Of a stretch of DNA of 64,000 nucleotides, positions 5,531 to 62,479 are shown piece after piece. Origin of the DNA: Chiloscyllium plagiosum (Eukaryota); NCBI RefSeq assembly GCF_004010195.1, contig NC_057718.1:84381586-84445585 (forward strand). The letters are read 5' to 3'. The position numbers were made by a program, and so were the translations under genes. The notes beneath the pieces are model-generated. The model was not told the DNA's origin. It saw only the letters and a list, made by a program, of their open reading frames with translations, and searched no databases. How positions within the stretch are numbered: the stretch's first letter is position 1; each line of letters opens with the position of its first letter.

Positions 5531-6099
5531 TATTTCCTTCCCCCACTTCAATACAGCTACCATGGTCAGTTCTCTCATGCTCCCTGAAGTCCCCATTCTT
5601 GGCTGGATAACTTGCAAGAACCTCCAAACCCAACTGTCAAGACTAAGGACACGTTTTTAAAGGTCAGGAGAAAGATTTTAAAAAGACACCAGGGGCAAAA
5701 AGATCAGAGAGAGAAAAAAAATACACTAAAGGAACTGCAGATGGTGGAAATCAGAAACAAAAAAACCAAACTGCTTCTAGTAGGATTAGGAAATAATATG
5801 TTGTGGATCCAGGAAGGGATAATTTGGATCTGGTGATGTGTATGAGGCAGGTTTAATAAATGTTAGTGCAAATGACACACTTGGAAGCAGGGACTACAAA
5901 ATGTAGGATTTAGCAATCCGCTTAAGAACTTGGTCTGTCCACAGATGCTGCCAGACCTGCTGAGTTTTTCTAACAATTCCTGTTTCTGTTTGAGAAGCCG
6001 AGAGTTGTAGACAGAGCATTGCAGAGCTTAAATTGGAATTTCTTCACAAGTAGACTATTTTGTTTTTAAATAAGTATGCGAAGGCCCGGTTTGTTTTGC

Positions 6100-6650
6100 C
6101 TCATGAGCGGCGACAAAACTCTCCACTCTGGGGAGCTAGCGGCTGAGTGTGAAGGCCTTGCGGTCAGTCGGTAGGTGTCCGCTAGCCCACCTTGCAAGTG
6201 ATCGAAGCCCAGGACGATGTCTGCCAGTTCTCCGTGCCGGTCCCCGGTCTCCAGGCTGGTTAGAATGCCTCCGAAGCTCAACACTGACAGCTTCACCGAG
6301 TCGGAGCGCAGCGTGAACCGGTGAACCAGCCGCCCGTCCGGCAGCGTCCCGAACACATCGCGACTGACCTCGGCCATAGTCCGAGCGGCCGCGCGGCGTT
6401 TCTGCCGGAGTCACTCAGCAAACCCGGAGGCCGCGGCTGATCGACGAAGGCCTTCCCTCGCCTTATTCTCCACTCCTTAGTGAGCAGATGTGGCAACTCC
6501 CGACTTAGGTCGTAAACAAAAAGTTCATTCGGGATTTTGCAAATTCCAGTTTTCGGTTTAACTTTGCGCTTTTTGCCGTTTTCTTATTCTCGACATTTAA
6601 ACTGTACGGCGGGATCAGCCGTGTCGCTTGCCGTCCAAAACCAGATCCCG
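6100..6650 (-). promoter_or_regulatory. CpG island / GALM promoter region
   Basis: High GC and CpG density around the first exon, in contrast to CpG-poor flanks. Confidence 0.75.
6191..6377 (-). CDS. GALM: Galactose mutarotase, coding exon 1
   Basis: Encodes MAEVSRDVFGTLPDG...GELADIVLGFDHLQ plus one G; donor CAAG|GTGGGC at 6190. 187 nt (phase 1), joins exon 2 as Gly-Tyr. Confidence 0.96.
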
Positions 6651-38299: not shown

Positions 38300-39450
38300 C
38301 AGAGCTCTCTCGCGAGATCAAGAGTGAGGCTAGATTTGACTAAGAAACTGTGCCTCTGACAATTTTGCCAGAGGTGGCATTTCTATGCTCCACAGGAAAA
38401 TAAATATTTCTTGGTGCTAAAAGGCAGTAGAAACCTTTCCTCAAAATGCAGCAGATTCTAGCTAAAGCAATCCTGTTAAACACAAGATCAGCGCATTTCC
38501 GCTGACCACGGGTGTGGAGCCGAGCTGGATCGAATACGGATCAGCCACAATCCCATTGAATGGTGAAAGATTACACAATCTCCCACTCCCCTCAACATTT
38601 CCAGCCGCTCTGCCTCTGACTGCAAGGGGGCGGCCGGCAGCAGAGGAGGGCGGGAATAGATGCGGGAGTACTGACGTCCCAGCAGCCAATAGAAAGACAG
38701 AAGGCTCAAGTAGCGTCGGGCCCCTTTGTTCTCCTCTTCAATCAGGGACGACCGCCGGGTGTCCCTCCGGCCAATGGGCGAGAGGCTGGGGGCGGGGACG
38801 CGCGCGCGGATTGTGCCGTGCCCCGACGATCCATCGCATTTTCGCGATCGTGGACAAAAGAGTGAAACGCTGGGTCGGTTGCGCTAAGAGGAGCGGGGAA
38901 AGAAAACGGAGAGGCTGCCGGCTGAACTGAGGTGTTTTCATTTAGCAAGGCTTTCCTTCATCGAGTGGTGACTGACAAACTGGCCCCTTTTCAAATTGTC
39001 TAGTTGCCGATTTATAAAAAAAAAGTTACATAACAGCTGCGGCCTCCGATTTCCTCTCTCCCTCTGCATCGCATTTATTTTGGGGGAAAATTCTCTGGAG
39101 AAATGTCGTCGGCGGACTATTACGAGTCGACGGACTATCTGGACGAATATTACGAGTCCTCCCGGCACCCGTCTAAGCGGCTCAAGGTCGACGAAAGCGA
39201 CACCGACTTCGATAGCGAGGAGGATGAAGGACGCGACGTTGGTGGCTCGGATGGGGGGGAGGTGAACGCTCCTGCACGTTCCAACTTTACACCTTTCACA
39301 TACTCCGCTCCCAGGCCGTGCTGAAATTTCGGAGTAACTTTAAATACTGTAATTCAGAGAGAGTACGCGCATGAGTTATCCCACCCACCAAAGTCCCGGC
39401 TTCGTTCGTTTGTTTCGTTGATCCCGACTCTGCTTTTTCGCACTGCACCA
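38300..39450 (+). promoter_or_regulatory. HNRNPLL CpG-island promoter and 5' UTR
   Basis: CpG-rich. TCTCGCGAGA 38308-38317, TGACGTC 38672-38678, CCAAT at 38686 and 38771, GC box GGGGCGGGG 38789-38797. Confidence 0.8.
39103..39261 (+). CDS. HNRNPLL: hnRNP L-like protein, coding exon 1
   Basis: Encodes MSSADYYES...YES SRHPSKRLKVDESDTDFDSEEDE...GGE, resembling human YESQAKRLKTEEGEIDY. Donor GAG|GTGAAC; 159 nt, phase 0, in frame with exon 2. Confidence 0.85.
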
Positions 39451-41926
39451 AATGTGCCAGCGTGACACTTGTTTTTTTTCTATTTTGCGTACTCCAGCCA
39501 AAGTGCGGCTGCTGATCTATCTTTAACGTGAGTGCCATCACCACCTGAGAGGTTGGGGAGGCCTCCATCTGGAGTTGTGAGCCTGTATTTGCATACTACA
39601 TTTTTAAAACCTCATCGGTCTACACCACCGCACGCTAGTCTACCAGCGGCTGGTTGCGATAATTATTTCGGTTAGGCAAAGGCTTTTGGAGATGTTTGTC
39701 CAGCGTCCGCATTCCCTCTGCTTGCACCGCGGATAAAAATTGCCACATTTGCTGGTTAGATAACCTATAGAGCCACTGAGACAACGGAGGTTGCAAAGCC
39801 TATTCTATTTTAACGAATCAAACAAATTTTCATTTCTACAGAAATTGAAATAAAGACTCAATCAACAACTGTGTGGATTTTTTAAAATGTTGCTGTGTAA
39901 CCTGTTAAACTACAATATTGATCCTAAAGCTCCGTTTCTCAGACCCAAAGAAACCGGTGCTTAATGTTCAAAGCTTAAAATATACTGCTGTTTGCCGGAT
40001 AAATCCGCTAACCACATTAGGTGTGAGATTATGATGGAGGGTTGGTGGGAGCCTGTTATACCTTTATATTTCTGCAGTATAAGCCAAAAATACAATATTT
40101 GTAAAGGAGTAACGCTGTTCCGATGTCCTGAAATAGAAATGAGTAATGGAGATGTCAACCTCTGTAGCGCAGTATGCCGACTAGCGAGTGTTGGCGTGTT
40201 TTGGTTCTGCTTATAAACCAGTGAAGGGAATGAACATTTGTGATGGGTATTATTCCTTCCCCTCCATTAGGGACTTTCCGTTAATTTGTCTTTCAAACGT
40301 GAATTGCAAGTCTTTGACATACAATTTAAATTCACGTAAATTAATCTTCCATATTACAAATTATGGAAATTGTCTTTTCGTGCTATCTCCAAGATAAATA
40401 TTTTTTCAGTCATCTCTCTAGTGAGAGCAACCCTATCGTCCTCTGGGACTATGGAGACATGATCCTATTTGACTAATGTTTCCTGTTATGCCAAGCTTTG
40501 TTCATAACTATTTCCCTTTTGACATCTTTTCATGTAGTTGCTCCCAAATTGTAATAGTGTGATAATTTAATACTTAGAGCATCCCCCCAGCAGGCTTCCA
40601 AACTGCACAATCAATTTTGACCAAGTACTTGAATGTTGATTTATTTTGCTGTAGACACACACACAGATGAAGAAGAGCTTTGCATTTCGTAGAGTTGTTG
40701 GGCAAATATACTCCTAAGCAATGCCACAAGGTATCACTTGTGAAGTTCTTCTCTGGGTCATATTTTATTAACTTATTAGTGACAGTCATACTATATGTTT
40801 CCTTCTATGAATCATAGAATCCTGATAGTACAGCTGTTAAAATACCTATTTGAGACTGCTCAGGGAATCCCTGATGGACTTGACCTGTATCTTCTCTTGG
40901 ATCGCCCCAGAGATCGTACTCTGTGGTAGTCTGGAATATAAAACTCTTACATACAGTTTAGTTTAAATTATTACCTTTTATTTACCAATGGCATCAGTGT
41001 TACACTATAACACCAATACTTACAAGTCAGAACACGGATACCTACAAGCTCGGCTTGTGCTAAGTTTCTAAAACCTTTAGCAGAGTATTAACATTACAAG
41101 AGTGCCACATGTCCTCAATCAGATAAGCAGCAACAAAATGGCAAAAGTTTGCAGAGGAAGAGAAACTCATTGACAGGTCTGCATATGCTTGACTAATTAA
41201 GCTACATGCACATCAAAGTGGGAAACCTTGATCCAGCCAGGTCCCAAATGGCTGATTGCTTTGGCTGGATAACCTTCCCTTTAAACAGTACCTCATAACA
41301 AGGGACTAGTCTAATCTATGTGGAAAGGTCATGAGGTAACCTTGCTCAGCTAACCTATCCAGTATTATTATCCTACAAAATGGCTTTTTGTTTTAAAATC
41401 ATCTTAGACTCCAAGAATTAAATTCATGACCTTCCTGAATCTCGAGCTCCAGTGAACAACATACATTCAATCCATGACAAGCCAGTGTTCACTCAAATCA
41501 GACTCTTACCTGTCTCGTTTGCTCATGCGTGCTCTCTCATTCACATGAACATCTTCCATCTTTCAAGCTTCGTGTTTTCTGCGCCTGTAAGGGTAATGAG
41601 ACATTCACTTCCCAGAGCAGTCAAGATGAGGGAGCTGAGCTTCGTAAACTCAAATCTGCTAGTGTGGTTTACGTGAAAATTTCAGGATTGTTATATTGCG
41701 TGCATATTCCACTCAGTTTATTAAATTACAAGTACATTTCCTATTGAGGAAAATTATAAATATTGAAAATCTAAAACATTTTCCATAGACTGAAAAATAC
41801 TCAGCTAAGCTAGACATGGTTCCGTTGTCTTTGTTAAAATTTTCAATGTAAAACTATTTAACTAATTTGAGATTAATATATTTTTGCTGGACAAATGTAT
41901 CATTGATGTAAGAGACAAAGACCACA

Positions 41927-43210
41927 CTTTTAGATGAGACCATCACACACACACCCCAACCACCCTCAATCACATTACCAACGAAAACATCATGAAGCCA
42001 CTGGACCTGTGCCTCACCACCCACTTCACCTTCAACAACATAATCTACAAACAAACTAATGGCACACCCATGGGATCTCTGCTATTTGGATTCATAGCAG
42101 AAGTGGTAATGCAAAGACTAGAACAAACAGCCCTACCAACCATCAAACCAAAAATCTGGGTCCGCTACGTAGATGAGACCTTTGTCATCACAAAACGAAA
42201 CAAGATAGAAGAGACATTTAACATTATCAACAACACTCTCTCAGGCATAAAGTTCACCAAGGAGGAAAAAACAGACGACAAACCCGCATTCCTGGATGTC
42301 ACAGTCGAAAGAAAGGACAATGGAGAACTACAAACCTGCGTATACAGAAAACCGACAAACACTGACCAAATACTTAACTACACCAGCAACCATCCCAACA
42401 CACACAAACGAAGCTGTATCAGAACACTATTCCAAAGAGCAACCACACACTGCAGCACAGACGAACTTTGGAAAACAGAGGAGAACCACCTATACAACAT
42501 ATTCAAGAAGAACGGATACTCAAAAAATACAGTCCGCAGATTCCTCAAGAACAAACCACGACAAGCAGACCAAACACAGCCAGAAATCCTAACCACCTTA
42601 CCATACATCAAAGAAGTTTCAGAAATGACAGCCAGACTACTAAGACCCAGCGGAATCCTAGTAGCACACAAACCCACCAACACACTCAAACAAAAACTAA
42701 CAAACTTAAAAGACCCAGTACAACCCATGGTCAAAACCAATGTCATCTACAAAATTCCACGCAAGGACTGCCACTAACAGTACGTGGGACAAACAGGAAG
42801 AAAGTTAGCCAGGATACACGAACATCAGCTAGCCACAAAAAGACATGACCCTCTCTCCCTTGTAGCCCTACACACGATGAAAAAATACACCATTTTGACT
42901 GGGACAACACATCTATCCTGGGACAGGCTAAACAAAGACATGCCAGAGAATTCCTAGAGGTCTGGCACTCCAACCACAACGCCGTAAACAAACACACAGA
43001 TCTAGATACCATCTCTCAACCCCTTCGAAAACGAACAGGAAATGACATCACCACAAACCCCAGGAACCCCATCCAGGACAAACCTATAAATAGAAAGCAG
43101 GAGACGACAGCTTCGCTTACTTGAATGTCGCCATTGACAATGTTACTGAGCCAGGTCATGAAACGTCTGGATATCAAACCTACAGCTCAGTGAGCAAACC
43201 TACACCCTAG
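41927..43210 (+). mobile_element. Penelope-like element, 5'-truncated (RT plus GIY-YIG plus terminus)
   Basis: 261-aa ORF with GTPMGS, YVDETF (catalytic DD degenerate), AFLDV and YRKPT, then NVIYKIPRKDCH*QYVGQTGRK. Confidence 0.9.
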
Positions 43211-45254
43211 ACGAAGACCGGAAAATAAGTCCGAGCGAAAAGTCCTCAGCTGATTTTTCTTGACTATTACTTGATTTAGCCTGTATATTATTAAATGGAC
43301 ATTTCAATTAAAATAGTTAAGTGAATCTTTAACAGTTCAAGGCATAAACTGTGTAAAATTATCATTCTTGCCATCCATCTTCCTATTATGTGTTGTGAGA
43401 CTTTGGTTTCTGTGGTTTGCCAATAATTTATTTCCAGATCTTTTGGAGTGGTAAAATTCTCCACCTTCAATATAGGAGTGCTATTAGAAATTTGGAGAAT
43501 GTGATATGCTGATCAGGTTTATCGGTGAGAGAAAGATCATGTTGATGTGCTCTGTTGAAACCTGGTTTTCTTTAAAATGGTTGACATTTCAGTTTTCTTG
43601 CTACTTATAGCTAACTTGTGGATTGTTGGATAATGTGTTACTTAACGTAACTTGTTTGGAAAACTAGTACTGTATTATGTACTTTGAATGCTACAACTAT
43701 TTTGCACCTCGTAGCTGGCTATGTTTTCTGTCAACCAGATACACTTTTTATACTTGGAGCTAGATTAGTTAGTTACATCTGCTCTTTTCTCCCTACTGAA
43801 AAATAAAATTACTTTATATTTTTTTGAGTTATTATCCAGTAATTTAAGCTTTATGGGGCGGTATAACAGAAGTATTCAGTGCTTAAGAGCCTATTCTGCT
43901 ATTGACTTAGATCACAATCAAAGTCTGCACCTTGACAGTTATTTTCCTGTCTTTGTCTCTGACCTCCATGATAGTTTTACATTGAAATTTTTAGCAAAGG
44001 CAACGGAACCATGCCTATCTTAGCTGAGTATTTTTCAGTCTTTGGAAAATGTATTCTAAGCGTTTTATCCTTGGTTCATTGGTAGTATTCTTGCTTTTAA
44101 CCATCAGATTTATAGCCTCCAGTATCACTTGAACACTTAACCTTAGCTGACACTCCAGTGCAGTGCTAAGGAGTGCTGTGCTGTGCTGTTGGTATGTTCA
44201 GTTGAAATATTAAATCCCACCTATCACAGCAAGGTCCCATAAAAGTACAATGTACAAATTAGCATCCAAAATTCCTACATTATATCAGTAAACATTGGCT
44301 GTCTTGTTCTTTTGAAATGATGCACATTGATGAGAGGTACACTAAATGCAAGCTCTTTCCTCTGTAATGTGAGTCACCATTTGCAAATGCACATAATTTG
44401 CACCGTTGTCATTGCACCCTCTTAGATTTGTTTTATTTCAGCAAAGTAAAAGCTGGAATGAATGTGGGTATTTCTGGTCGTTACGTGAAGTCTGGGCAGT
44501 TATCTTCAGCATTTTGATCATGCATTGTGTAATTGTATTGTGGAATTCTGCAAGTTTTTAGAATTGTGTTTTTGTAAGTTGCATAAAGTAGGAATTCCGT
44601 AATGATTTTTGAGCATACCTGTGCAGCTCTGTTCACAAACCTTTTATTGAATCATTAAATGCAAGAAAAGTCCAATTAGTCTTTTGTGTTAGAGTTTGGA
44701 AAAGCTATTCATTTGTCTCTCTGATGCTGTTTCTTTCCTTTAGCCCTAAATAGTTTCTTTTAAATATATACATTTTAAAATTGAGTCTATTTATATTGGA
44801 CATGTTTATTTAAAATCACAAGCTTTCAGAGCACTACTCCTTTGTAAGGTGCCAGTCCTGGCAAAATGCTTATACATCTCTGAATCCTTTCGTGGTTTTA
44901 CAACAACCTTTCCATAGCAGGGAGACCTGAATGTTCATAAATTGTTGCATTTCTGTTAAAAATTGCCTGCTCAATTTTTTGCTAAATGTCTTGAGTGTGA
45001 AATTACATTCAGTTGCTCTGTGGCATGTGTTACTTCAGTTCACTGTTAGTATCACAATCAGCCAATTACCTTGAATGGCTTTGTGAGTTGGCAAAATTCA
45101 GGGCTACTTTGATTTTTTTAAAAAATTATTTTTGTCATTAACCTAAGTACAGTGTAAAGCTTTTGTTTTGCGAGGAGTACAGGCAAATCATGACATACAA
45201 GGACATACGGATCATAGGGTGTTTAGACAGAATGAACCAGACATGGTTAGGACT

Positions 45255-45537
45255 AGATTCCCTACAGTATGGAAACAGGCCCTTCGGCCCAACAAGTCCA
45301 TACTGACCCTATGAAGAATAACCCATCCAGACCTATACCCTATATTCACCCCAATTATGGGCAATTTAGCATGACCAGTTCACCTAACCTGCACATCTTT
45401 GGATTGTGGGAGGAAACCCACGCAGACACAGGGAGAATGTGCAAACTCCACACAGTCAGTTACCCAAGGCAGGAGTCGAACCTGGGTTCCTGGTGCTGTG
45501 AGGCAGCAGTGCTAGCCACTGAGCCACCGTGCTGCCC
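45255..45537 (-). mobile_element. HE1-like SINE
   Basis: Reverse-complement head and tail. Confidence 0.85.
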
Positions 45538-45594
45538 ATCATGGGTGCACAGGAAGTGCACAAAGGCAAAATCAACATTAGATACCCACCCCCT

Positions 45595-46502
45595 TTCGAA
45601 GCAAAATACTCAGACACAGTGTAGTTTTACCTCCTTCATCTTTATTCCGGGCCCTGGAGGGAGAGAGGAGCGATCACCCACGTGCACAGAGACATGAGTT
45701 CTCGACCTTCTCTCGTGAACAACAGTTTCTTAAGGAATTATATACAGAGGAACCTCTACTATCGGAATGAGATGGGTAGGCACTATTTCGTTCGGATAAT
45801 TGAATATTCAGTTAATTGATTCAATCCCTTTCCTCTGGGGCTCGAGTTTTCTATTAAGTTTGCTCCCTATTCGGTAGACTAGCAGCAGAACACCGCCTCC
45901 AACACCACCCACCCCCAAAACCCCAAATGTGTGGCAAGGGAGAGAGGGCGGGAGGTCAGTCATTTGGAGACAATACCTTGGCTCTCATCTATGTCCAGTA
46001 CTGTTCTCGGCAGAGATCTGTTTAATCGGTGTAAACAGAAGATTTGATCAGGGTTGAAATGGCTCTTTCACGTAATGTTTCTATCGGGACCTCGATCTCC
46101 ATCGAATAATTGATATTTGAATAATTGAGGTTCCTCTGAGTCATTTCACAGGGAGGAGCATCCAGATAAGGCCACATACATGTTGGGTGACCGTCACAAT
46201 CAAAGTGTCAATAGCGATTAAACCATCTGCTGTTACACAATGAATGTTCTTAACCTTAACTGGCTTCACATAATGAATACTTTTCACCTTGTTAACTGAT
46301 CTTACTGAATACTTCCATTATTGTGAAATGGCTGTACATAATGAATGCTTTTCCACCTTGTTAACCCATTACCCTTGCCTCCAGCACCCAATTGTTAACT
46401 AAATGTTCTTATCTGATCTGAGTCCTGCTCAGCTGAACCTCGTGTTTCGCAGAACTCAAAGCGTAACTCTTCCCGACCTGCTTATACCCATACACATTCT
46501 CA
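45595..46502 (-). mobile_element. Putative 3' LTR of an ERV-like element
   Basis: On the minus strand: polypurine tract (PPT) AGGAGGGAA (46511-46503) directly followed by TG; U3-like repeats (46235-46365); TATATAA (45744-45738); AATAAA (45646-45641). The terminal CA was not located. Confidence 0.6.
45745..46138. mobile_element. Tigger/pogo-like MITE inserted in the putative LTR
   Basis: Terminal inverted repeats CAGAGGAACCTC ... GAGGTTCCTCTG; TA on the left flank. Confidence 0.7.
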
Positions 46503-46611
46503 TTCCCTCCTATCATTTTGTGATAACCACCTAGATGGCACTACCAGCTTTCATAAGATTCTGACAGCCAGTATTCAAGCAAGTTATTGATACATAGTGT
46601 ACAATGATTAT

Positions 46612-47380
46612 AGAGTCATAGAGATGTACAGCACGGAAACAGACCTTTCGGTCCAAATCGTCCGTGCCGACCAGAATCCCAACCTTGGCCTATATCGTCT
46701 CAAATCCTTCCTATTCATATACCCATCCAGATGCCTCTTAAATGTTGCAATTGTACCAGCCTCCGCCACTTCCTCTGGCAGCTCATTTCATACACATACC
46801 ACCCTCTGAGTGAAAATGTTGCCCTGTAGGTCTCTTTTATATCTTTCCCCTCTCACCCTAAACTTATGTCCTCTAGTTGTGGACTCCCCCCACCCCAGGG
46901 AAAAAACTTTGTCTGTTTATCCTATCCATGCCCCTCATGGTTTTAAAAACCTCTATACGGTCACCCGTCACCCTCCAACGCTGCAGGGAAAACAGCCCTA
47001 GCCCTATTCAACCTGTCCCTGTAACTCAAATCCTTCAACCCTGGCAACACACTTGTAAATCCTTTCTGAACCCTTTCAAGTTTCACAACATCACTGCAAC
47101 ATGACCTCCCAACTCCTGTACTCAATACTCTGACCAATAAAGGAGAGCATACCAAATACCGCCTTCATTATCCTATCAGTGCAGCTCCACTTTCAAGGAA
47201 CTCCAAGGTCTCTTTGTTCAACAACACTCCCTAGGACCTTAACGTTAAGGTGTATAAGTCCTGCTGAGATTTGCTTTTCCAAATTGCAGTGCTTCACATT
47301 TATGTAAATTAAACTCCATCTGATACCTCTCAGCCCGTTGGCCCATCTGATCAAGATCCTGTTGTAATCTGAGGTAACCT
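46612..47380 (-). mobile_element. CR1 LINE 3' portion inserted in the ERV-like unit
   Basis: Encodes DVVKLERVQKGFTSVLPGLKDLSYRDRLNR; CR1 tail. Confidence 0.85.
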
Positions 47381-47639
47381 TTTTCTAACAACAAAAATTA
47401 CTAGTCGTTACAGTAAATAGAATTTGAAGAATTCTCCCATCTGGGGAGAAAAAAATCACCAGTAAAGATCCTAAATCCGCAATCTTTAGCGACCACTCCA
47501 TCCCTCTAAGTCAGGTGGAAATGAGCAAGTTCTCCAAAATCTCCTTCTGTAAAGTCCAACCCGAAAACAAAATTCAGTCTTGTCCTTCTGTATCACTCCA
47601 CAGAGAAATCTGAATTCTTGGATAAGAGCAGTTAAATGC

Positions 47640-47962
47640 TTAACAACACTGACAAGACTTCCATTCTTCTGGAGATACTTCAGATGGAGCATACCAGCGC
47701 ATCTAAGCGTGCAGTGCAGCAGCTGCAACTGCAAGCTAGGTGAAAGCAGCATTCTTCGCTGACTCTGCTCCTGCTCTGCTGTCAAATGTAACAAAGCCAA
47801 ATGGCCATTCCGATGTTCGCTTGATCAGTGACCCTTCATATCCCTTAAATGATCGAAAGTGAAGGTAAAGCTTATGTGGCCTAATGTCTATCGAAGGCCA
47901 CTGACAAAAAGCGTACTGACCTCCTATTCACTGTTGTTAGCCTATCCACCCCTCATGCGCAT
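47640..47962 (-). pseudogene. RBPMS2: Processed, internally deleted RBPMS2 retrocopy
   Basis: Manual translation: [21 protein letters not shown]/(P)[81 protein letters not shown]. Matches the RBPMS2 RRM and C-terminus; no introns, four premature stops, one frameshift. Confidence 0.9.
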
Positions 47963-48368
47963 GCCTGGGGATCTTATTGAATCCGCTGGATCAGATTGTA
48001 GGGGGTGGGTGGTGGTATGAAGGCGTGCCAATCCTGTGAATGGAGGAACCCTAGAGAAACTGTTAGGTGCTGAAAGCATCCTTGCGTCTCCTCTCCCCGC
48101 CAAGGTGGCCATCAGTATGAAGACAGTCACACATCTAATTACACTAAATTGCGTCTGTCTATCTCCCCCTTATCTGCATTCTTGAAGCCTGTTAATTATT
48201 TATGACATCAAGTTTTATACAATCCATAAACCTCTAAATTGTACTGCCTAAACAATTGTCAGTTGTAAACAACAATCAGTAGTCCTAAAGTCAAACCCTC
48301 TGGGCACCCCATTCAGGTTATTCAAAAATTATTTTCCTTTAACAAATTGATACTTGGTTAATGTGAAA

Positions 48369-49599
48369 GCTGGCAGGCAGAGGTTACAGTCCTCCTTGCT
48401 GCATTGGGCAGATGGGTGGACGTAAGAGGTTAGAGTCCTCTGCATGGTACTGGGGCTCGAGTCCCCGAGGTGAAAGCTGTCAGGAAAAGTATTTCAAAAG
48501 TCTGGAATGGCAAACCAATGAAAAAATGTTTCCTGTGCTTTTGTAATTGAAGAGGCTGTTTCAGTTCATATTTAAATCTCAAATATTTGTGGGAAATAAA
48601 TGCTGAATATTTTAAAACTGAAACTTCCTAAATAAAATAGTCAGAATTATGGTGGCAACCTTGATAGAGATCAACATGCCTTGAATTTGCAACATGAAGG
48701 GGGCCAATGAAGTGTTAACAATAATTAACAGAACTGAAACAGCTCAGCCTCAAATTCAAGTATTCTCCAAATCTTAACAAAACATCAAACTCAAAATGCA
48801 CTCTTTTTGTGAACACTTTGCGTTTAAAACCACAGCAGCAATACTATCGTCTGGCTAAAGCATGATCATTGACAATAGTTTTTTTCTGAAACGGGCATTG
48901 TAGAATTTGAAACAAATCAGGGGCTCAAGGCACTCGATCAATTTGTTTTAAGGTTACAGGTTTGAAATTGTACAACACTGTCATGTTTAGAATGATCAAT
49001 GTAAACACAAAATCTGGCCCATTACATACCCCCACAAAACACATTGAATTGAGATCCTGATTCAAACAAGGCAAAACCGTTACTCAAAAGGATTTTCTGA
49101 ATCAGTATTTTAATAAATGCAAGTTTTTAAACATCAAATGCGCTCAGCATGGCACAATTAACATCAAAACTTTCCTTTTTCTACCCAAGTATTAGTACAA
49201 CCTTAATTTCAGCATTTCTTGTTTTTTATTTTTTTTCATCCTCACTGAAATTACACTTAAAAAAGAGAGCCCTCGCAGTGGACCACATGGCACTGTAGTC
49301 CAAGCCGCTCTCTTTCTCCCAGAGCAAAGATTCGCAGAGGCTCAAATTTTGCCACCAGGGGACTTTAACCCCTTTCTCACTTTAATCCTCATTGGGGCTT
49401 GAACCTCACTTAAACACAGAGTTCGAACCTCAAATCAATCCACCCAGTAGACTCAAACCCCAATCCACACAGAGGACTTGAACCGCAATCAACCCCACCT
49501 AGGGGACTCGAGCCCCAGTACCATGCAGAGGACTCTAACCTCTTACGCCCACCCATCTGCCCAATGCAGCAAGGAGGACTGTAACCTCTGCCTGCCAGC
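48369..49599. repeat. 104-bp inverted repeat pair (48369-48472 and 49496-49599)
   Basis: Manual alignment: 102 of 104 bases identical. Confidence 0.95.
49359..49590 (-). repeat. Array of about 8 tRNA T-arm/B-box-like motifs (GGTTCRAGTCC-like on the minus strand)
   Basis: Plus-strand units GGACTTTAACC, GGGCTTGAACC, GAGTTCGAACC, AGACTCAAACC, GGACTTGAACC, GGACTCGAGCC, GGACTCTAACC, GGACTGTAACC. Confidence 0.7.
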
Positions 49600-49790
49600 G
49601 CGATTGCATAACTGTCTGTCTCGACTGAACTAATTACTGTTTGAGGAGTCCATGGAATAGAGAATTATTGAATGAGGGGACCATCTCTGCCATACAAATG
49701 TTGAGAGGGACCAAGGTTTAAAATCTTACCTTGTGGGCCCATCTGTCTCGACACCGAGTGACCACTGACACCATCTGATTGTAACTATCT

Positions 49791-49814
49791 GTTTGAATCC
49801 TGCCAACTATGTCA
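49791..49814 (-). other. tRNA-Ser primer-binding site (PBS) of the ERV-like unit
   Basis: Plus strand GTTTGAATCCTGCCAACTATGTCA versus tRNA-Ser 3' end GTTCGAATCCTGCCGACTACGCCA: 20/24, all transitions, three at CpG. Splice donor CAAG|GTAAG lies downstream at about 49730 (minus). Confidence 0.7.
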
Positions 49815-49909
49815 ATATTGTCCCCCTTCCCAACACGCACCACCAGACTTTGGATTTTGGAGCTTTTTGGATTTTGGAATTTAAGATAATGGGTTCTCTA
49901 CTTGTACTT

Positions 49910-51800
49910 TCAACCTCCTGTACACTGGAGCTACAATTCAGGTTCACATCCCCTTGTAGAATTAGTTTAAACCCTCCCAAAGAAGATTAGCACCCCCCCC
50001 CACCTCTTTCCCCCAAGGATAGTGGTACTCCTCTGGTTCATCTGTACACCACCCTTTGGTTCAGGTGCAGACCATTCCATTTGTAGAGGTCCCATCTACC
50101 CCAGAATGACCCCCAATTAACCACGTATCTGAATCCCTCCCTCCTGTACCATCCCTGTAGTAGTTGAACATGTAGCTCTCTGTCCCTATTCCTTGCCTTG
50201 CTAGCACATGGCATGGGTAGCAAACCAGCGATAACAACTCTATTCTACCTCTAAGCTTCTACCCTAGCTCCTTGAATTTCTGCCTTACATCCCCATCCCT
50301 TTTCCTACCTATGTCATTGGTTCTTATGTGGACGATGACTTGGGGCTTTTCCCCCTCCCCCTTATGGATCTTGGAAAAGACAGTATTGTTGAGGAGAATA
50401 CTGAGATACAGGCTATTAGACGAGACAGGATTGAGGCTCACAAGGAGGAGGTGTTAGCAATTCTGGAAAGTGCAAAAATAGGTAAGTCCTGCTGGGCCGG
50501 ATGGCATTTATCCTAGGATTCTCTGGGAATCTAGGGGGGAGATTGCAGAGCCTTTGGCTTTGATCTTTGTCATCATTGTCTACAGGAATAGTGCCAGAAG
50601 ACTGGAGGATAGCAAATGTCCCTTGTTCAAGAAGGGGAGTAGAGACAACCCTGTTAATTATAGACTAGTGAGCCTTACTTCGCTTGTGGGTACAGTGTTG
50701 AAACAGACTACAAGATATAAGATTTCTAATCGTCTAGAAAGGAATAAGTTGATTAGCGATAGTCAACACGGTTTTGTGAAGCACGACTTACCCTTCACAA
50801 ACCTTGAGTTCTTTGAGAAGGTGGGCAAACAGGTGGATAAGGCTAAAGCAGTTGATGTGCATACGGGTTTCAGTGAAGCATTTGATAAGGTTCCGCATGG
50901 TTGGCTATTGCAGACAATAGAGGCATGGGATTGAGGGTGATTTAGCGGTTTGGATCAGAAATTGGCTAGTTGTAAGAAGACAGAGTGGTGGTTGATGGGA
51001 AATGTTCATCCTGGAAGGATGGTTTAGTAAATTTGCGGATGACACAAAGGTTGGTGGAGTTACGCACAGTGCGGAACGATGTTGCAGGTTACAGAGGGAC
51101 ATAGATAAGTTGCAAAGATGACTGAGAGGTGAGAAATGGAGTTTAACATGGAAAGATGTGAGGTGATTTACTTTGGAAGGAGTTACAGGAATACCGAGTA
51201 GTGGGCTGCTGGTAAGATTCTTGGTAGTGTGGATGAGCAGAGACATCTTGATGTCCATGTGCGTAGATCCCTGAAAGTTGCCACCCAGGTTGATAGGGTT
51301 GTTAAGAAGGCATATGGTGTGTTACCTTTTATTGGTAAAGGGATTGAGTTTCGGAGTCATGAGGTCATGTTTCAGCTCTACAAAACTTGTGCGGCCGCAT
51401 TTGGAATATTGTGTTCAGTTCTGGTCGTGACATTATAGGAAGGATGTGGAAGCATTGGAAAGGAGGGTGCAGAGGAAATTTACCAGGATGTTGCCTTGTG
51501 TGGAGGGAACATTTTGTGAGGAAAGGCTGAGGGACTGGTGGCTGTTTTCATTAGAGAGAAGGAGGTTGAGAGATGCCTTAGAGACATACAAAATGATCAG
51601 AGGATTAGATAGGATGGATAGTGAGAGCCTTTTTCCTCTGATGATGGCTAACAGGAGGGGACATAGTTTTAAGTTGAGGTTTGGTAGATCTGGGATAGAT
51701 GTGAGAGGTAGTCCCTTTACTCAGAGTACTAAGGGTGTGGAATGCCCTGTCTGCAACAGTAGTAGACTTGCCAACTTTAAGGACATTTACATGGTCATTG
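49910..51800. mobile_element. CR1 LINE pieces: ORF1 esterase fragment (minus, to about 50340) fused to an ORF2 3' half (plus)
   Basis: Minus: WGSFWGRWDLYKWNGLHLN. Plus: NYRLVSLTS, AFDKVPHG, KFADDTK. Confidence 0.85.
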
Positions 51801-52049
51801 TCCTTTCATCTTAAAGATGACCACTGTTTTGTAAATGTCGCAGTACTAAGTGTTGCTGCACCGTGTGTCAGTTTGATTTTCAAATTCCTGAATTGGAACT
51901 CATTCAAGAAGTGATTTGTGATGCCTACTGAACCACAGTTAAATTACTAAGCATCAATTAACAATTAAAACACTTAAGTCTTATTACTTGAGACTTGTTT
52001 AAAGTTACTTCTGACTGCATGAGTGCTTCAAATTAGAGAAATAACACTG

Positions 52050-52212
52050 GTTAGATTAGATTAGATTACTTAGTGTGGAAGCAGGCCCTTCGGCCCAACA
52101 AGTCCACACCGACCCTCCGAAGAGCAATCCACCCAGACCCATTCTCCTACAGTTACCCCTTCACCTAACACTATGGGCAATTTAGCATGGCCAATTCACC
52201 TAACTTGCACAT
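52050..52212 (-). mobile_element. HE1-like SINE 3' fragment
   Basis: (TTAGA)n tail and SINE 3' body. Confidence 0.85.
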
Positions 52213-52316
52213 TGTGAATATTTTGATTTGATGCAATGACCCATGCAGGGGTAAAGTATTAAAATAGAATTGTCTTGAAGATAATTTATTTACAGTAACA
52301 AACATTCCCCTTTTAG

Positions 52317-52483
52317 GATCGCGATAGAGATCGGGATCGCGATAGAGACAGGGACCGAGATCATGATCGACCGAGAAGTCAACATAAGACTGCCCCATCG
52401 CCTGTGGTTCATGTCCGTGCTTTGTGTGACTCTGTGATCGAAGCTGACCTGGTGAAAGGCGTTGATCGATTTGGGCTCATAAG
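52317..52483 (+). CDS. HNRNPLL: hnRNP L-like protein, coding exon 2 (DR repeat plus start of RRM1); missed by the ORF track
   Basis: Acceptor TTCCCCTTTTAG; encodes DRDRDRDRDRDRDRDHDRPRSQHKTAPSPVVHVRALCDSVIEADLVKGVDRFGLI; donor AG|GTAAGT; 167 nt. Confidence 0.93.
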
Positions 52484-52899
52484 GTAAGTGACTCACCTAA
52501 TTAGCCAAGGGTAGTTGGTTAGAATTCTCACTGACCTTCATGCACCTCTTCTGTTTCCAAAGTGAACTATGTTGTATAAAAGTATTGTGGATCAGGTTGC
52601 GTGGATTCCTCTTTCAGTGTAAGATGAGAAGACAAAGAATGAATTGGTGGAAGTGGGAGGAGTGAATTCTCCAAGAGTTTTGGGAGGGGTTACTAAAGAC
52701 ACTTTGTAGTATAGATGTATGTTGCGCTTACACATTCACTAATTTTGCGTAAATGCGCTTCATCACCATATTGTATTTCAAATTCTCAAGATGAAATATC
52801 TGGCAACAGCAGCTGATTTTTCTCAGCCGTTAGGATTAGGGTTGAAGTTATTTAATTGATGTTCAAGGTCAATATTGTGCATGAGGTTCAAACGCTTTG

Positions 52900-55800
52900 A
52901 TTTTACTTTTCTTTTAAAAATATATAATTTGAAAAATAAATTTCTGATATTACAAATACAAATACAAACAATACAATTCAAAACAGTACAAAGAAAGAAC
53001 AAGAGAAACCAGACTGCACTCATGTACAAGTGTATAAATCTGTATATAAAAAAACCTAAATACTTTAATAAACAATAACTAACTAGTAAATCATAATAAT
53101 ACAGCTCAGTGAGACAAAACACTAGCCCTCGACTCTTGAGAACATTAATTTCCACATTCATACATTCGCAGTTCCCTCTCTCTAGGTGTTAGACTCTTAA
53201 AACACAACTGGTTTGGCTATATAAAAACCCTTATTAGTGTGGCAGACATCTATGTCCAGGTAGTCCGTAAAGGGCTGCCATGTCTTATTAAAATTTCTGT
53301 TTTATGGTGCACCATACTTATAACAATATCCAAAGGGATATGTGCCATAAGAATCTTATGCCAACCCTACAAACTCTGATGATTTTCAGATACTCAACCT
53401 AACAGAATATTCTTCCTTGTGCAAAAAATAAGGATGTTGAAAAGTTTTTTTTTCTGATGCGCATCTGCAGGCAATACACTGGGAAGGCCAAGAAGAGGAG
53501 AAATCTGGTCCATCTCCACCCTTGTCCCCAAGATCCTCTTTATTGTACCTGCCACAACGTTCCAGTATGTTCAGAGCCTGCAGCAGGACCAGAGAGGCAC
53601 TGAGTCAGAGTGCTTTGCACTTGAGACATGTTGAAGACCCTGTGGGGAATCTTCAACTGTAAATTGCAAATCAAGATCTTTCTCGCGTTTTCCCAACAGG
53701 TGATAAAGCGTGCTGACAGAAAATGTGTTCTTAGCACTGAGCGCCGTCTTCTCTATGTTGGAACTGTGGGAATTGGTTAAATGTTCCTTCCCTTTTTGAA
53801 CAAAGTCCCTAATTTGAAAAAAAATGAAAACGGGTCCCTGCTATGTAGCTCATATTTCCGAGCTGACTTGTCAAAACACATCATTGTTTCCCCCTCAAAT
53901 AAATCACTCATGCAGGAGACACCCATAGGAGAAAGTGAGGACTGCAGGTGCTGGAGATCAGAGTTGAAAGTCTGGTGCTGGAAAAGTGCAGCATCCGAGG
54001 AGCAGGAGAACAGACATTTTGGGCATCGATTTCTCCTGCTCCCCTGATGCTGCCTGACCTGCTGTACTTTTCTAGCACTCAGTCACACCCCTAGCTGCCC
54101 AAAGCTTAAATCCTGAGTCCATCATCCCCAGTTGAAAACCCAGCAGACCAACTGTGTAGGTGTTTTTTAAAAAAAAAATGTTTTGGCAATATATTGCCTT
54201 CACTCAGCCACACTGCCTTCCATGCTTTAACAGTATTGATAATTCATTAGTCTGTCCAGGCAATATTTCATAACTGTCCTCATTTTGTCCAGAAACAGCA
54301 AACTAGCAAGGGGGCACCTTGCCTGAGAAGTCTCCATATCTAACCCACAAGCCTAGTCACACTCATAAGATAAAAACGAGCTTAGTTGATTTTAATGTCT
54401 GGGAGAATCACTCCCCCAGTCCATGAGGCAATTGCAATTTAGCCAACTTAATAATGGGATACTTACGATGCCACATAGAAGAGCTGAATCAGCTGTTCAG
54501 TCTCCTGAATGTTTGCCAAGTGAAAATCGAGGGGACCATTCGCATAGGTTACAATAGAGGGGTGGGGTGGGGGCAAGAACATTTATTTTAATGAGGGCTA
54601 TCTGACCTAACCAAGAAACCAGAAATGCCTCTTTGAAGGTCTTGTTTGATCTTTGTCAAATAAATGCACAAAAATTAGCTTTAAACAGCCAATCGAAAAC
54701 GAGAGTAATGAATATACCCAAATCCAGAAAACCTCCCTGTGACCACTTAAAAGGGAATCGAGATTTGCCATCAAAACCTAGCATTTTTGTAAGACCACCT
54801 ATAGGCATAGCGTATGACTTTGCAAAATTGATCTTGCAACCCAAAACAGTGCCAAACAAATTGATACATTGTATCAGGCGAGGCACTGAAACTGCTGGGT
54901 TTGACAAAAAGATGAGGACGTTGCTCACATACAACGAAATCTTGTGTGCTTTTGACCCCACTTCTGGAGCCTATATATTAGGGTCCCTATGAATAGCCTT
55001 CGACAACTGTTCAGTCACCAATGTAAAAAGCAATGGCGATGAGGGACAGCCCTATCGACTGCCCCTAAAGATATTAAAATTGCATGATCGCACACCATTG
55101 GTGAGAACTGCAACGAGAGGGTCACCATAGAGCACCTTTACCCATCTTGTAAAGGCTTTACCCAAGCCAAACCTTTCTAGAGTATAAAAAAGGTACAGCC
55201 ACTCAACCCGGTCAAATGCCTTCTCTGCATCTAGAGAGATCACCAATCCCTGTACAGACTGTTGTTAACACGCTTGAATTACATTAAATAACCTGATATT
55301 ATTGGAAGATCTGCGGCCTTCTATAAAGGCCATCTGGTCCTCTTTAATAATAGAAAGCAACACAGTTTCCAGCCTTTCCGCAAGAGTCTTAGAAATGATT
55401 TTAAAATCAACATTTAAAAGTGAAATGGGCCTATAAGTGGTACCGTCCTCCGAGCTTACCCTTTTCTTAAGAATAAGAGAGCTATTGGCCTCTCTTAGAT
55501 GGTGGGAGGCGATCATGACTGTATGAGTCATTGAACATGTTGAGCATTGGGCCTGAAAATATGCTTATATGTTATAAAATTCACTGGGAAGTCCATCAGG
55601 ACCAAGCGCCTTTCCACTCTGAAGCTGCTTCACATCCTCCTGCTCTGATAAGGGGGCATTAACAAAAAACTCTCTTGTCCGGGAGTTATACCTGGAAGCT
55701 CCAGATTCTTGAAAAAAAGGCTCCATCCTAGCCTGCCCATCCTCTCTACTTTCAGACTGGTATAATTCAGTAAAATCTCTGAAATGCTACATTAATCTTT

Positions 55801-58800
55801 CTAGAATCACAGGTTAGGTTTCCAGCACCTTCCCTGATTGATGTAATGGATTGAGGGGCACTCTTTTCTTTTCCTGGCAAGATACGCTAAGTACTTGCCC
55901 AGTTTGTCACCATGCTCAAACAGCCTTTGTTTTGCAAAAGTAAGCTCCTTCTTTGCTGTCTGCTTGAGCATGGAGTTCAATGCAGACCAAAGAGCTGTGA
56001 TCCTGTTACTTAGTCAACGAGGCCCTGTCGAAGTACCACTTCTTGGCTGCCTTCAACCATGCTTCAAGCAGATGATGCTGCTCCCCCTTCTGCTGCTTCC
56101 TACCGGCGGAGTAGGAAATAACTAACTCTCTGGCATAAGTTTTAGTTGCCTAAAGAACGGACAGGCTACCAGCCAAACCTGAATTGATGTATAGGAACGC
56201 CCTGAATTCAGTAGAGAAAAACTCCACGAACTTACTATCCTTCAGGATAAAAGGATCCATTCGACAGTCTCTTGAGACCCACTACAGCTTCCGTAATCTT
56301 AACCAAAAAGTACACTGGAGCCTGATCAGAGATGGCAATATTACCAATCGTACAAGAGATCGCCAAGTCCAGGATTGCCTTGGGGCAGTCAAAAAAAAAT
56401 AATCCTGATGTGGCACCTGTGCAGATTGGGGGAAAAACAATGTAAAATCCCTGCTGTAGGGTGGGCACTCCTCCAGATGTCCACCCACCCTCACTCCACA
56501 CACACACACATCCACTAATTGCTTGGTTTGTAAAGAAGGTATCGGGGGGGGCTTTGGACAATCTGTCTACTGCAGGATCCATAAGACAATTAAAACTTCC
56601 CCCTATGATATGCTGCGATTCAAGACTAATCAATTTAGAGAACGCATTTACCAGAAATTTGAGGGATGGGCCAGGGGATAGTAGACATTTAAAATACTAT
56701 ATTCTTTACTATTTATCAAAGCTTTAAGGATTACAAACTTCCCATGTGTGTCTTTAACACACACCCTAGTAACTTAAAGGGAGATTCCTCCTAACCAATA
56801 TGGCCATTCCCTAACTCTGAGTATTAAAAGATGAAAAGTAAACCCGATCAAATCCATTCTGCTGCAATTTCAAATGTTCCCTCTTACTCAAGTGCTTCTC
56901 CTGTGACAAAGCAATATCCACCTTTTTCCTTTCTAAGACTTGAGAGTACCTTCTTCCTCTTAATTGGCGAGTGACTCCCTTTGATAGTCCAGGTGCACCA
57001 TTTAAACAAGTCATTAGCCATAATGTTCGGCAGTAATATTTAGACTCCAGAGAGGAAGAACTTGAATTAGAAGTTGCTGAGCCTTAATAAAAGAAAATCC
57101 ACAGAACCTTAAAAACTACACAAACTAAAACCACTACAATTAACAAACCTAGTCGAGAGTGTAGTGCTGGAAAAGCACAGCAGATCAGGTAGCATCCGAG
57201 GAGCAGGAGAATTGATGTTTCGAAGGGCTTAAGTCCTCCTCGGGTGCTGCATGACCTGCTGCGCTTTTCTAGCAATACACCCTCAACTCTGATCTCCAGC
57301 ATCTACAGCAACCAAGGCATTTAAATACCTGAACTGGCTTAAAGTGGCAGTAAGTAGGCATCTTGCCATCCCAATTATTTTGTCGTCTCCTAGCTAGAGC
57401 CGCACCATAAACACAAGCGGCAATAAAAAAGAAAGTATAAGAAAGAATAATATTGTAAACAAAAAAGTTAAAAGTGAATAGTAAGTACCCCACCCATCCC
57501 CTGGTATAGCTTAACTTAGAAGTTAAAAGTAAATTCCCCATTCATCCCAGAGCATAATTGAACCCAGATTATTTCCAAAAAGAAAGAGGAAAAGAAAACC
57601 CCAACACTCTTTCCTTTTTTCAAAAAAAAAGACTTCCAAACAATGCTATTACCTGTACATATTAAATGATTCAGACTAAGTTAGCTTGTCCAGAGTCTCT
57701 TGCTTTCCCTGAGTCAAAGAAGTGTATGAATCCATTAAAGGTAATCTGAAGCACTGCCAGGTATCTTAGAGAGTACTAGATCCTGAGTTCCCTCAGTCTT
57801 TTCTTAATGCCATTGTAGGATTTCCTTTTCCGGATCACCGCCATTGGGAAGTCCTGGAAAAGCATGATCCTAGGGCCCTCATAAACTAAGGCCTTTGATC
57901 CTTCCCCTGGATTCTGGAAGGTTCCATGATTCTCTGCTTGTCTCTATAATTATGGAACCGCACCAGGATAGGGCAAGGACGTTGGTCCAGACCTGACCTT
58001 CATGCCGTGACTCGGTGAGCCCTCTTAACCTTCAGACTTGACCATTCCAGACTCCAAGTTAAGGGATTTTGGTAGCCAATCCTCAATAAATTCCACTATT
58101 GCTCTCCTTCCTACCCCTCTGGCCGACCAATGGTCTGAATATTTTTCTTCCTGTCCCTGTTTAGATTAGATTATTTACAGTGTGGAAACAGGCCCTTCGG
58201 CCCAACATGTCCACACCGACCCGCCGAAGCGCAACCCACCCATACCCCTGCATTTACCCCTTACCTAACACTACGAGCAAGTTAGCATGGCCAATTCACC
58301 TGAGCTGCACATCTTTGGACTGTGGGAGGAAACCGGAGCACCCGGAGGAAACCCACGCAGACACAGGGAGAACGTGCAAACTCCACACAGGCAGTTGCCT
58401 GAGACGGGAATTGAACCTGGGTCTCTGGCGCTGTGGGGCAGCAGTGCTAACCACTGTACCACCGTGCCGCACACCGTGTTCTCGATCATCAAACTGGTCA
58501 AGCAAATTACAGACTCACATCTCCGGGCCTGGATCCTATCCTTAAAGGAATCAGTCTCCGCTTCCACCACTGTGACCCTGTGTTGTACTTTGTCCGACCT
58601 TATCTCAAGGTCTCCTAGCTACTGTTTGTGCTTTTGCAGCATAATAGAGATCGAGGCCAGTTTCTTTTCAGTTTGCTTACCCAGCACCGATATCGGGGCC
58701 TGGTAAGAAATGAAGTCCGGGGATCCTGTAAGTTGGGCTGCGTCCCTGGCCGCGGGCGAGTCTGCTCCCTTCTTAGGCATCCCGGGACGGGTAACTGCCT

Positions 58801-58940
58801 TCTTAGAACTTTTTAGGACTTTGCAACTTTTTCAGAGTCATAGAGTACTGGGTAGGGTGGGTTAGGGCTTTGTCCTGCCTGCGATGTGGTGCAGAGCTCT
58901 GCAAAGTGATGATCTTAGATCGCTGCCATTTTGGATCCCC
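52900..58940 (-). mobile_element. Near full-length decayed L1-clade LINE with nested short elements
   Basis: 5' end GGGGATCCAAAATGGCAG; ORF1 remnants 57680-58790; APE KVDIALSQEKHL; RT YRPISLLNVDFKI and ISLDAEKAFDRVEW. Confidence 0.85.
58160..58470 (-). mobile_element. HE1-like SINE inserted in L1 ORF1
   Basis: Complete SINE in reverse orientation. Confidence 0.88.
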
Positions 58941-61900: not shown

Positions 61901-61949
61901 GTGTTTTAGTCCTAAGAGCAATTCTTCATAGCTGGACTTTTCATTACAG

Positions 61950-62187
61950 CTACGTGATGATGTTACCAAACAAACGACAAGCTCTGGTGGAATTTCAAGA
62001 TTTGCGAAGTGCCCAGAAGTGTGTTGCTTATGCTAAACGGCGGATTGTCAATATTGCTGGACATCCTGCTTTCTTTAACTTCTCCACAAGTCAACGGATC
62101 ACCCGTCCTGGGGGTCCTGAAGATCCAAAGCATGTCAACAATGTTCTCTTCTTATCTATTCAGAATCCGCTATATCCAATCACAACG
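61950..62187 (+). CDS. HNRNPLL: hnRNP L-like protein, coding exon 3 (RRM1 to start of RRM2)
   Basis: Acceptor TTACAG; encodes (S)YVMMLPNKRQALVEF...AFFNFSTSQRITRPG...LSIQNPLYPITT; donor GTAGGT; 238 nt. Confidence 0.96.
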
Positions 62188-62479
62188 GTAGGTTTGTCTT
62201 AAACCCTTAACAGATAAAGTCACAATTGTTTTTAAATGATTGAAACTCCTCATATGGTAGACTGACAATTTGTAAGTCATCGTAACTTATGTCTTTTATT
62301 TAGAGCGTGTCGCCTTATGCTAAATTTTCATTGAATGAAAAATAATGACTGAATTACAGTCTGGACCAAATTCTAATGGAAGAGACAAACCTTGAAAGGT
62401 GTTGCATCTTCGTCTTATTTATTATTTTGATCTTGTGTTCAATCCTGCTGTGTCAATCCCCATGTCTTTTTTTTTCCAG

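Follow-up and report, generated by a model that had tools for sequence, protein, structure and literature searches.

The 64,000-nucleotide (nt) stretch of the Chiloscyllium plagiosum genome analyzed here (contig NC_057718.1, positions 84,381,586 to 84,445,585; hereafter the window) contains one decayed copy of a non-autonomous family that is derived from an endogenous retrovirus (ERV) and carries an intronless copy of the host gene RBPMS2. Capture by template switching into spliced RBPMS2 messenger RNA (mRNA), with a relay of the cargo to a second retroviral backbone, is very probably the best explanation of this family. A sequence-only reading of the window had proposed such an ERV or long terminal repeat (LTR) unit with a captured RBPMS2 mRNA. 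The proposal is supported by the loss of introns, by paired LTRs in sister copies, and by short words that host and viral sequences share at the capture junctions.

A dispersed ERV family with an intronless RBPMS2

The host RBPMS2 gene lies on another contig (G000:C40:25,026,138-25,132,105). It spans about 106 kb and has 8 exons, seven GT-AG introns and an open 194-amino-acid (aa) protein. The paralogue RBPMS was rejected as the parent, as the host locus corresponds to elephant-shark RBPMS2, with 88-100% per exon. The window copy matches host exons 1-4, part of exon 6, exon 7, and about 205 nt of the exon with the 3′ untranslated region (UTR) at 75-94%, with the introns exactly removed; it also holds the end of the 5′ UTR, is frameshifted and contains stops. 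The sequence-only reading was thus right about a same-sense intronless RBPMS2 with UTRs, but the copy is not a whole mRNA, for the end of exon 4 through the middle of exon 6 is deleted. Exon skipping was rejected as the cause of this deletion, since its breakpoints lie inside exons 4 and 6.

On the minus strand, from 49845 to 45575, the element reads in the order of LTR end, primer binding site (PBS), splice donor, leader, AT-rich part, integrase scrap, RBPMS2, tail of the envelope gene (env), polypurine tract (PPT) and LTR. Its parts are listed below in window coordinates, where TM denotes the transmembrane region of env and fractions of 40 refer to sister copies.

49815..49845, minus strand: terminal bases of the 5′ LTR and the 4-nt spacer before the PBS; the same GACA + 4 nt + PBS is seen in sister copies
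49797..49814, minus strand: PBS for tRNA-Ser(AGA); 15/18 positions equal the 3′ end of a tRNA-Ser(AGA) gene of the same genome, with the CCA end assumed
49311..49796, minus strand: leader with the splice donor (GT at 49729) and tandem GAGTCC-type repeats; high copy
48141..49310, minus strand: AT-rich non-coding segment; 38/40 copies
47990..48140, minus strand: integrase scrap, the zinc-finger start joined to a C-terminal piece; 76-88% against uncaptured pol-bearing ERVs; 39/40 copies
47432..47988, minus strand: processed RBPMS2, matching the host gene exon by exon; ATG at 47962
47383..47439, minus strand: env TM tail, part 1, aligned to the relative L165; starts with an 8-nt junction common to the RBPMS2 3′ UTR
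46503..46612, minus strand: env tail, part 2 (46612 to about 46512), and PPT; homologous in uncaptured relatives
45575..46502, minus strand: 3′ LTR of type B, about 540 nt without its insert, with a decayed end; pairs with the 5′ LTR in sister copies

Several of these landmarks had been called correctly from the letters alone, namely the tRNA-Ser PBS from 49814, the splice donor about 49730, and the PPT abutting TG at 46502, directly after which the LTR begins, with a TATA-like box at 45744 and AATAAA at 45646. The 5′ LTR had been called unrecognizable, and indeed only its last few bases are left; upstream of the PBS, no other match to LTR-B (the type B LTR) was found on the minus strand within the window.

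To count the family, a 20-mer across the internal RBPMS2 deletion junction was searched, and it occurred at 369 genomic places with at most 2 mismatches, while the reversed control gave 0. Because this probe recovers 34 of 40 known copies, 369 is a floor for the copy number. First-look searches gave 6361 candidates for the LTR, 680 for the leader, 573 for the AT-rich segment and 659 for the RBPMS2 region; 40 of each were scored, and these figures are not copy numbers. We then examined 40 sister copies of 9 kb each (35 from the RBPMS2-region search and 5 from the LTR and leader searches). An LTR was present on both sides in 30 of them, as paired direct LTRs with TG...CA ends, the 3′ LTR in 36, the leader in 32, and the env tail directly after RBPMS2 in 38. 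As in the window, the PBS follows the 5′ LTR (23/40 copies match it with at most 5 mismatches, one of them doubtful) and the PPT precedes the 3′ LTR. The sequence-only reading had asked for paired-LTR copies with the same PBS and PPT and for other loci with the same RBPMS2 junctions; both were found, the latter by the hundreds.

Because the window copy has lost its 5′ LTR, no target duplication is readable there, and the duplications were read in sister copies instead. Among 17 copies with a clear LTR start, the end was callable in 13 and not in 4. A 4-bp target duplication was exact in 6 of the 13 callable copies and within one mismatch in 10, and none of the 13 showed an exact duplication of 3, 5 or 6 bp. 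These results also bear on whether one insertion was multiplied by segmental duplication or in the assembly. One pair, L069 and L072, is only about 3-4% apart in the cargo, as duplicates would be. However, the copies lie on dozens of contigs with differing flanks and individual 4-bp duplications, and the median copy-to-copy distance is 0.14. The duplication reading is refuted by the distinct target duplications, and we give it practically no weight.

Among 19 other top LTR matches, 3 were 3′ LTRs of the family, 1 was a 5′ LTR with leader, and 15 were without family internal sequence; the family has probably left many solo LTRs. A short fragment of the LTR-B 3′ end also lies elsewhere in the window (1307-1390, opposite strand). 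In L068, L083, L097 and L099, part of the LTR is joined directly to internal sequence, which represents further large internal deletions in the B family. In addition, the leader tandem unit was expanded into long arrays in L008 (2380-3381) and L075 (2550-4080). The array of L008 is near-perfect over 1 kb, and therefore a dead element seeds minisatellites.

Uncaptured relatives and the capture junctions

A search with the exon 5-6 part that is missing from the window subfamily gave 52 matches among 72 candidates, and 30 loci were examined. One was the host gene, and the other 29 were copies of a second, rarer type of element (A-type, A1) that retain the deleted part; 10 of the 29 retain all exons, and 19 join exon 6 to the 3′ UTR, losing the C-terminus. 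LTR-B is absent from all 29. Most of them carry another LTR, LTR-A, which is unalignable with LTR-B. Their PBS resembles what we take to be that of tRNA-Leu.

Upstream of the cargo, A-type copies have a gag-like start that runs directly into the terminal part of RNase H. In one A copy, this RNase H scrap has its best structure matches in the RNase H of murine leukemia virus (MLV) and xenotropic MLV-related virus (XMRV) (E 1e-4); Pfam searches of the element scraps returned nothing beyond a weak RRM match. With the RNase H scrap as a lead, we found eight longer relatives (L164-L171) that are without RBPMS2 in the examined DNA. In the relatives scanned, Pfam matched protease, reverse transcriptase (RT), two RNase H-type domains, integrase zinc finger and core, and an Ebola-like TM heptad region, several of these matches being below the curated cut-off and the gag part being without a family match. 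The domain order is gag-protease-RT-RNase H-integrase-env, with a second RNase H-like tether, in L165/L172, L167 and L171. The env TM of L171 has an Ebola-like HR1-HR2 match (E 0.001, below cut-off), and a CX6C motif was read in translations; CXnC is a listed TM subtype (bioRxiv 10.1101/2021.11.23.469661). These Pfam domains mark the parent as an env-bearing, class I-like (gamma/epsilon-like) ERV. The pol-bearing relatives with A-type LTRs are decayed, and only gag/pol scraps remain in the RBPMS2 family.

These relatives correct the view that the window copy has no gag/pol remnant: about 150 nt of it (48140-47990) are derived from integrase, and an env TM tail is present as well. They also modify the claim that RBPMS2 stands in place of gag/pol. 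The capture itself holds, but RBPMS2 replaces most of integrase and env, and the rest of gag/pol was lost by separate deletions.

Comparison with the uncaptured relatives gave both switch points, with microhomology at each, as had been predicted. At the 3′ junction, the 8-nt word TGGGAGGA occurs in the host 3′ UTR and in the env TM of L165, exactly where the captured copies cross over. This junction lies about 50 nt upstream of a LINE (long interspersed nuclear element) insert in the window copy, which was thought to obscure it but does not. At the 5′ junction, CCCCTC is both the start of the captured host 5′ UTR and the end of an 80-nt RT piece in A copies. This RT piece matches L172 and L173, and its overlap with the host 5′ UTR is up to 8 nt with L172 (range 6-8 nt).

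The same junctions can be used to weigh another origin, in which a LINE or other machinery placed an RBPMS2 retrocopy into a resident provirus, DNA deletions removed its tail, and the ERV then spread the cargo. LINEs are abundant and insert into these elements, and junction microhomology can also arise from later deletion. However, both ends of the cargo lie inside the transcript. The captured 3′ UTR is cut at about 205 nt and fused to env, while the host exon continues to a first AATAAA about 2 kb further. The words shared with viral sequence are found at both ends, in sense orientation. Furthermore, none of the 40 sister copies has a poly(A) tail at RBPMS2, which the sequence-only reading had named as evidence for an independent insertion. 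The marks of a LINE-processed pseudogene, namely a poly(A) tail, a 3′-complete transcript and a target duplication of its own, were not found at the cargo. A LINE retrocopy is, on this evidence, very unlikely, and template switching is preferred.

By template switching, the following course is proposed. In the shark germ line, RBPMS2 mRNA would have been co-packaged by an env-bearing retrovirus of class I (gamma/epsilon-like). The viral reverse transcriptase would have changed template twice, each time where the two templates had a short word in common: from env TM sequence into the RBPMS2 3′ UTR, and from the RBPMS2 5′ UTR back into pol sequence. The spliced mRNA would thereby have replaced most of integrase and env, downstream of an env-type splice acceptor. 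Mobilized in trans, the defective LTR-A element, whose gag and pol were already fused by deletion, would then have reached some tens of loci; next, parts of RBPMS2 would have been deleted from it and the AT-rich insert added. Its 3′ half would have recombined onto a second backbone with LTR-B, the tRNA-Ser PBS and a related leader. This LTR-B version would have burst to several hundred loci, the window copy among them. The window copy later lost its 5′ LTR and took a LINE, a miniature inverted-repeat transposable element (MITE) and what looks like a templated inversion. The cargo itself was most likely a passenger, and its copies are decaying pseudogenes. Co-packaging in the germ line is plausible, because zebrafish rbpms2 RNA is found in oocytes and rbpms2 is needed for ovary fate (PMC6049948).

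Subfamilies, decay and later damage

Intermediates between the two backbones were found. L157, L161, L162, L163 and L174 have an LTR-A-type context or A-type gag/RNase H scraps, together with the AT-rich insert and the window-like 5′ trimming (A2). Three of them (L161, L162 and L174) extend far enough to show the same internal RBPMS2 deletion as the window family. The AT-rich insert of A-type elements sits within the integrase zinc-finger region. In the window family, the junction between the A2 version and the segment with LTR-B, the Ser PBS and a related leader falls midway in the AT-rich insert; right after the PPT, the LTR switches again. A related splice-donor context is also present in A-type elements and in the uncaptured relative L171. 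Judging by the shared deletions, the simplest path would lead from an uncaptured ERV through full-length capture and trimmed A2 to backbone B and its burst. A possible source of the AT-rich insert, which measures roughly 1.6-1.9 kb and interrupts the integrase region, is another host 3′ UTR that was captured. In L160 (1970-3570), the AT-rich insert lies between two A-type LTRs with no RBPMS2.

Several observations weigh against this account. In A copies, a stretch of about 60 nt that separates the integrase scrap from the RT piece was not placed. The 40 sister copies are the best matches to the window copy, so complete elements are favored among them. The tree of 74 cargo sequences is star-like (median end branch 0.078); only 5 of its 71 inner branches are well supported, and the bootstrap is unsettled. 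It is the shared deletions that give the A-to-B order, because the tree does not resolve the subfamilies. In addition, the 19 LTR loci and 20 leader loci inspected yielded no autonomous LTR-B element, which leaves the second backbone's donor and the helper unseen. The AT-rich insert had no host source among its best 40 matches, which are family-like copies apart from two unexplained matches. Finally, the LTR pieces of one A2 copy, L162 (G000:C42:19219700-19224400), are 97.5% identical over 320 nt, while the family has about 88-90%. This copy may have inserted late or undergone gene conversion, or its high identity may reflect an assembly effect.

The insertions are old, but their date is loose. 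Over 20 LTR pairs, the median Kimura two-parameter (K2P) distance was 0.124 (range 0.103-0.188); with CpG sites left out, the uncorrected value was 0.102. This corresponds to about 280 million years at 2.2e-10 per year, the rate assumed in PMC4422223, and to about 60 million years at 1e-9 per year, which is our own upper guess. The accessible text of PMC10587355 gives only a per-generation rate.

After insertion, the cargo decayed neutrally. For rare mutations in codons 1-70, neutrality predicts a ratio of amino-acid-changing to silent variation (pN/pS) of 0.76-0.89; the observed ratios were 0.87 for B and 1.08 for A1. Most B copies have in common 9 replacing differences from the host and 5 silent ones; for A1, the corresponding numbers are 2 and 4. 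Given these shared differences and the near-neutral pN/pS, the most widespread version did not conserve its cargo. In 10 of 41 B copies, the frame from the ATG stays open for 68 codons or more. An open frame under purifying selection, as in a functional retrogene, was not found; the window copy is frameshifted and the family is near neutral.

The splice signals are partly kept. The donor context could be located in 26 of 41 copies, and 21 of those 26 retain its GT. Two candidate env-type acceptors lie inside the integrase scrap, at about 48051 and 48034 in the window. Their AGs are retained in 35/38 and 32/38 copies, and the second stands 72 nt before the RBPMS2 ATG in 22/37. Furthermore, four database "RBPMS2-like" proteins of this species (P0001, P0043, P0089 and P0092) are element copies by sequence, and P0092 equals L107 (1300-1842) exactly over 181 aa. 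The N-termini of P0043 and P0089 can be read as a leader exon joined to the acceptor in the integrase scrap, in frame with RBPMS2. This suggests that env-type splicing was predicted in these gene models. As weak evidence, a search for chimeric RBPMS2 proteins in other species gave one candidate, P0001 itself, and all such proteins came from one species among the 120 of 242 matches listed.

These signals raise the question of whether RBPMS2 was a useful cargo, comparable to a viral oncogene, that was expressed like env from a spliced subgenomic RNA and promoted the spread of the early element or virus in oocytes. In favor of this, the donor and acceptor sites in front of the sense-oriented cargo are retained, two gene models read through them in frame, ten A1 copies retain all exons, the open 181-aa frame of L107 is annotated as P0092, and rbpms2 RNA is present in zebrafish oocytes (PMC6049948). 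However, the subfamily that spread most is without the end of the RRM, and a stop just after the internal deletion is common to 27 of 41 B copies. The shared differences of B are 9 amino-acid-changing to 5 silent against 2 to 4 in A1, the leader ATG survives in only 8 of 26, and 19 of the 29 A1 copies lost the C-terminus. We consider a useful cargo unlikely.

The dispersed copies might instead act on the host gene, with antisense or PIWI-interacting RNA (piRNA) products tuning RBPMS2 mRNA in the germ line. There are at least 369 copies, the window copy is antisense in a host intron, and W-linked Masc retrocopies in the diamondback moth provide a precedent (bioRxiv 10.1101/2022.04.04.486979). 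The copies are, however, about 12% from the host coding sequence and decay neutrally, and such tuning appears very improbable. By analogy with the moth Masc retrocopies, one could also imagine a two-backbone relay of an oocyte-fate regulator in which the copies, some of them antisense within transcribed host genes, became a source of germ-line small RNAs tuning shark RBPMS2, and the first full-length version was env-spliced and aided spread in oocytes; this combination is quite improbable.

The window copy was damaged after its insertion. The later sequences and the gene in which the element lies are as follows.

48369..48472, plus strand: inverted 104-nt copy of the element's own leader (source 49496-49599; arms 98% identical)
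46613..47382, minus strand: 3′ fragment of a CR1-like LINE, a later insert; matches other high-copy repeats of the window
45745..46138, strand not assigned: MITE-like insert at the TATA box of the LTR, with perfect 12-bp terminal inverted repeats; a separate high-copy repeat
39103..62190, plus strand: host gene, hnRNP L-like; exons at 61864-62190 match hnRNP L / L-like structures

Later CR1 and MITE insertions had been noticed from the letters, and both inserts are private to the window copy, as 0/40 sister copies carry either at these sites. The insert at 47382-46613 gave no Pfam hit, and we take it to be a CR1. The MITE-like insert is an internally deleted member of a repeat of about 800 nt with 4236 candidates in the genome. 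A Tx1 insertion was rejected as its identity, since it has terminal inverted repeats. Meanwhile, the inverted 104-nt leader copy had been overlooked. It lies 1 kb downstream of its source, with a 10-nt flanking duplication and shared words of 3-5 nt at both ends. Sister copies that span the site are contiguous across it, and the inversion is private to the window copy. It looks like a young templated repair insertion, or an assembly error. A MITE was rejected for this inverted pair, because what lies between the arms is native sequence that sister copies hold in collinear order; the real MITE is the one inside the LTR.

The element is antisense between the putative first exon and the later exons of the hnRNP L-like gene. 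It had been placed in intron 1 of a splicing-regulator gene, and it does appear to lie in the first intron. Exon 1, at about 39103-39267, is presumed by us from an open frame and has no Pfam hit. Immediately upstream of the break in the 5′ LTR, a fragment at 49900-50370, also without a Pfam hit, is presumably from LINE open reading frame 1 (ORF1). Elsewhere in the window, at 6066-6380 on the minus strand, lies the first exon of an aldose 1-epimerase (GALM-like) gene that points away from the hnRNP L-like gene. We assume that these two genes are neighbors in other vertebrates as well.

Comparison with known captures and significance

In transducing retroviruses, host mRNA replaces viral genes, and the defective genome needs a helper. 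Captured genes named in PMC4299795 include src of Rous sarcoma virus (RSV) as well as the cyclins of walleye epidermal hyperplasia virus (WEHV). Unlike viral oncogenes (v-onc), the shark cargo is an RNA-binding oocyte regulator and shows no sign of selection.

Closer parallels are the crocodilian CrocERV31, in which nectin3 replaces env (6 copies), and CrocERV29, with KIT-ligand (9 copies) (PMC4299795). They share with the shark family a spliced host mRNA in sense orientation at the env position, several loci and deletion derivatives. However, the crocodilian open frames are under purifying selection, in one group, ERV4, whereas the shark family has at least 369 copies, decays neutrally, is class I-like and has changed its LTR and PBS. 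In scale, the frog ERV-GA.a-Lle is similar. It carries an intronless OGFr in 2331 of 4552 copies, and host OGFr is highly expressed in the ovary (bioRxiv 10.1101/2021.11.23.469661). Both are ERVs of anamniotes with a gamma-type env, an intronless host gene and very many copies. The frog element carries its cargo in the pol frame, its env is mostly intact, and reinfection is the presumed mode of spread, whereas env and most of gag/pol are gone in the shark family, and its spread therefore would have needed a helper. RBPMS was not found in the main text of that preprint.

The junctions resemble LTR-mediated retroposition with template switching guided by microsimilarity (Tan et al. 2016, PMC5131818), which includes human FAM8A1_r and maize Bs1. 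In those cases too, a partial mRNA is chimeric with an LTR element, words are shared at both switch points, poly(A) is lacking and secondary retroposition follows. Bs1 has 1-5 copies. Stepwise trimming of the cargo and its passage to an unrelated LTR, as in the shark family, are not described in the accessible text of PMC5131818. In the literature searched, we found no description of a shark RBPMS2 family; Repbase/Dfam, most subscription journals and the bioRxiv supplements (with a Chiloscyllium ERV table) lay outside this search. The principle and the scale of capture have precedents, and the shark family is a clear new example.

The host gene, uncaptured relatives, both switch points, intermediates and the move between backbones survive in one genome, which makes an unusually complete record of a capture. 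This completeness and the relay of the cargo to a second backbone are what set the family apart. Spurious "RBPMS2-like" gene models in this species can be traced to the family, with consequences for gene counts and for the mapping of RNA-seq reads of an ovary-fate gene. Retroviral capture of a host mRNA followed by mass amplification has also happened in sharks.

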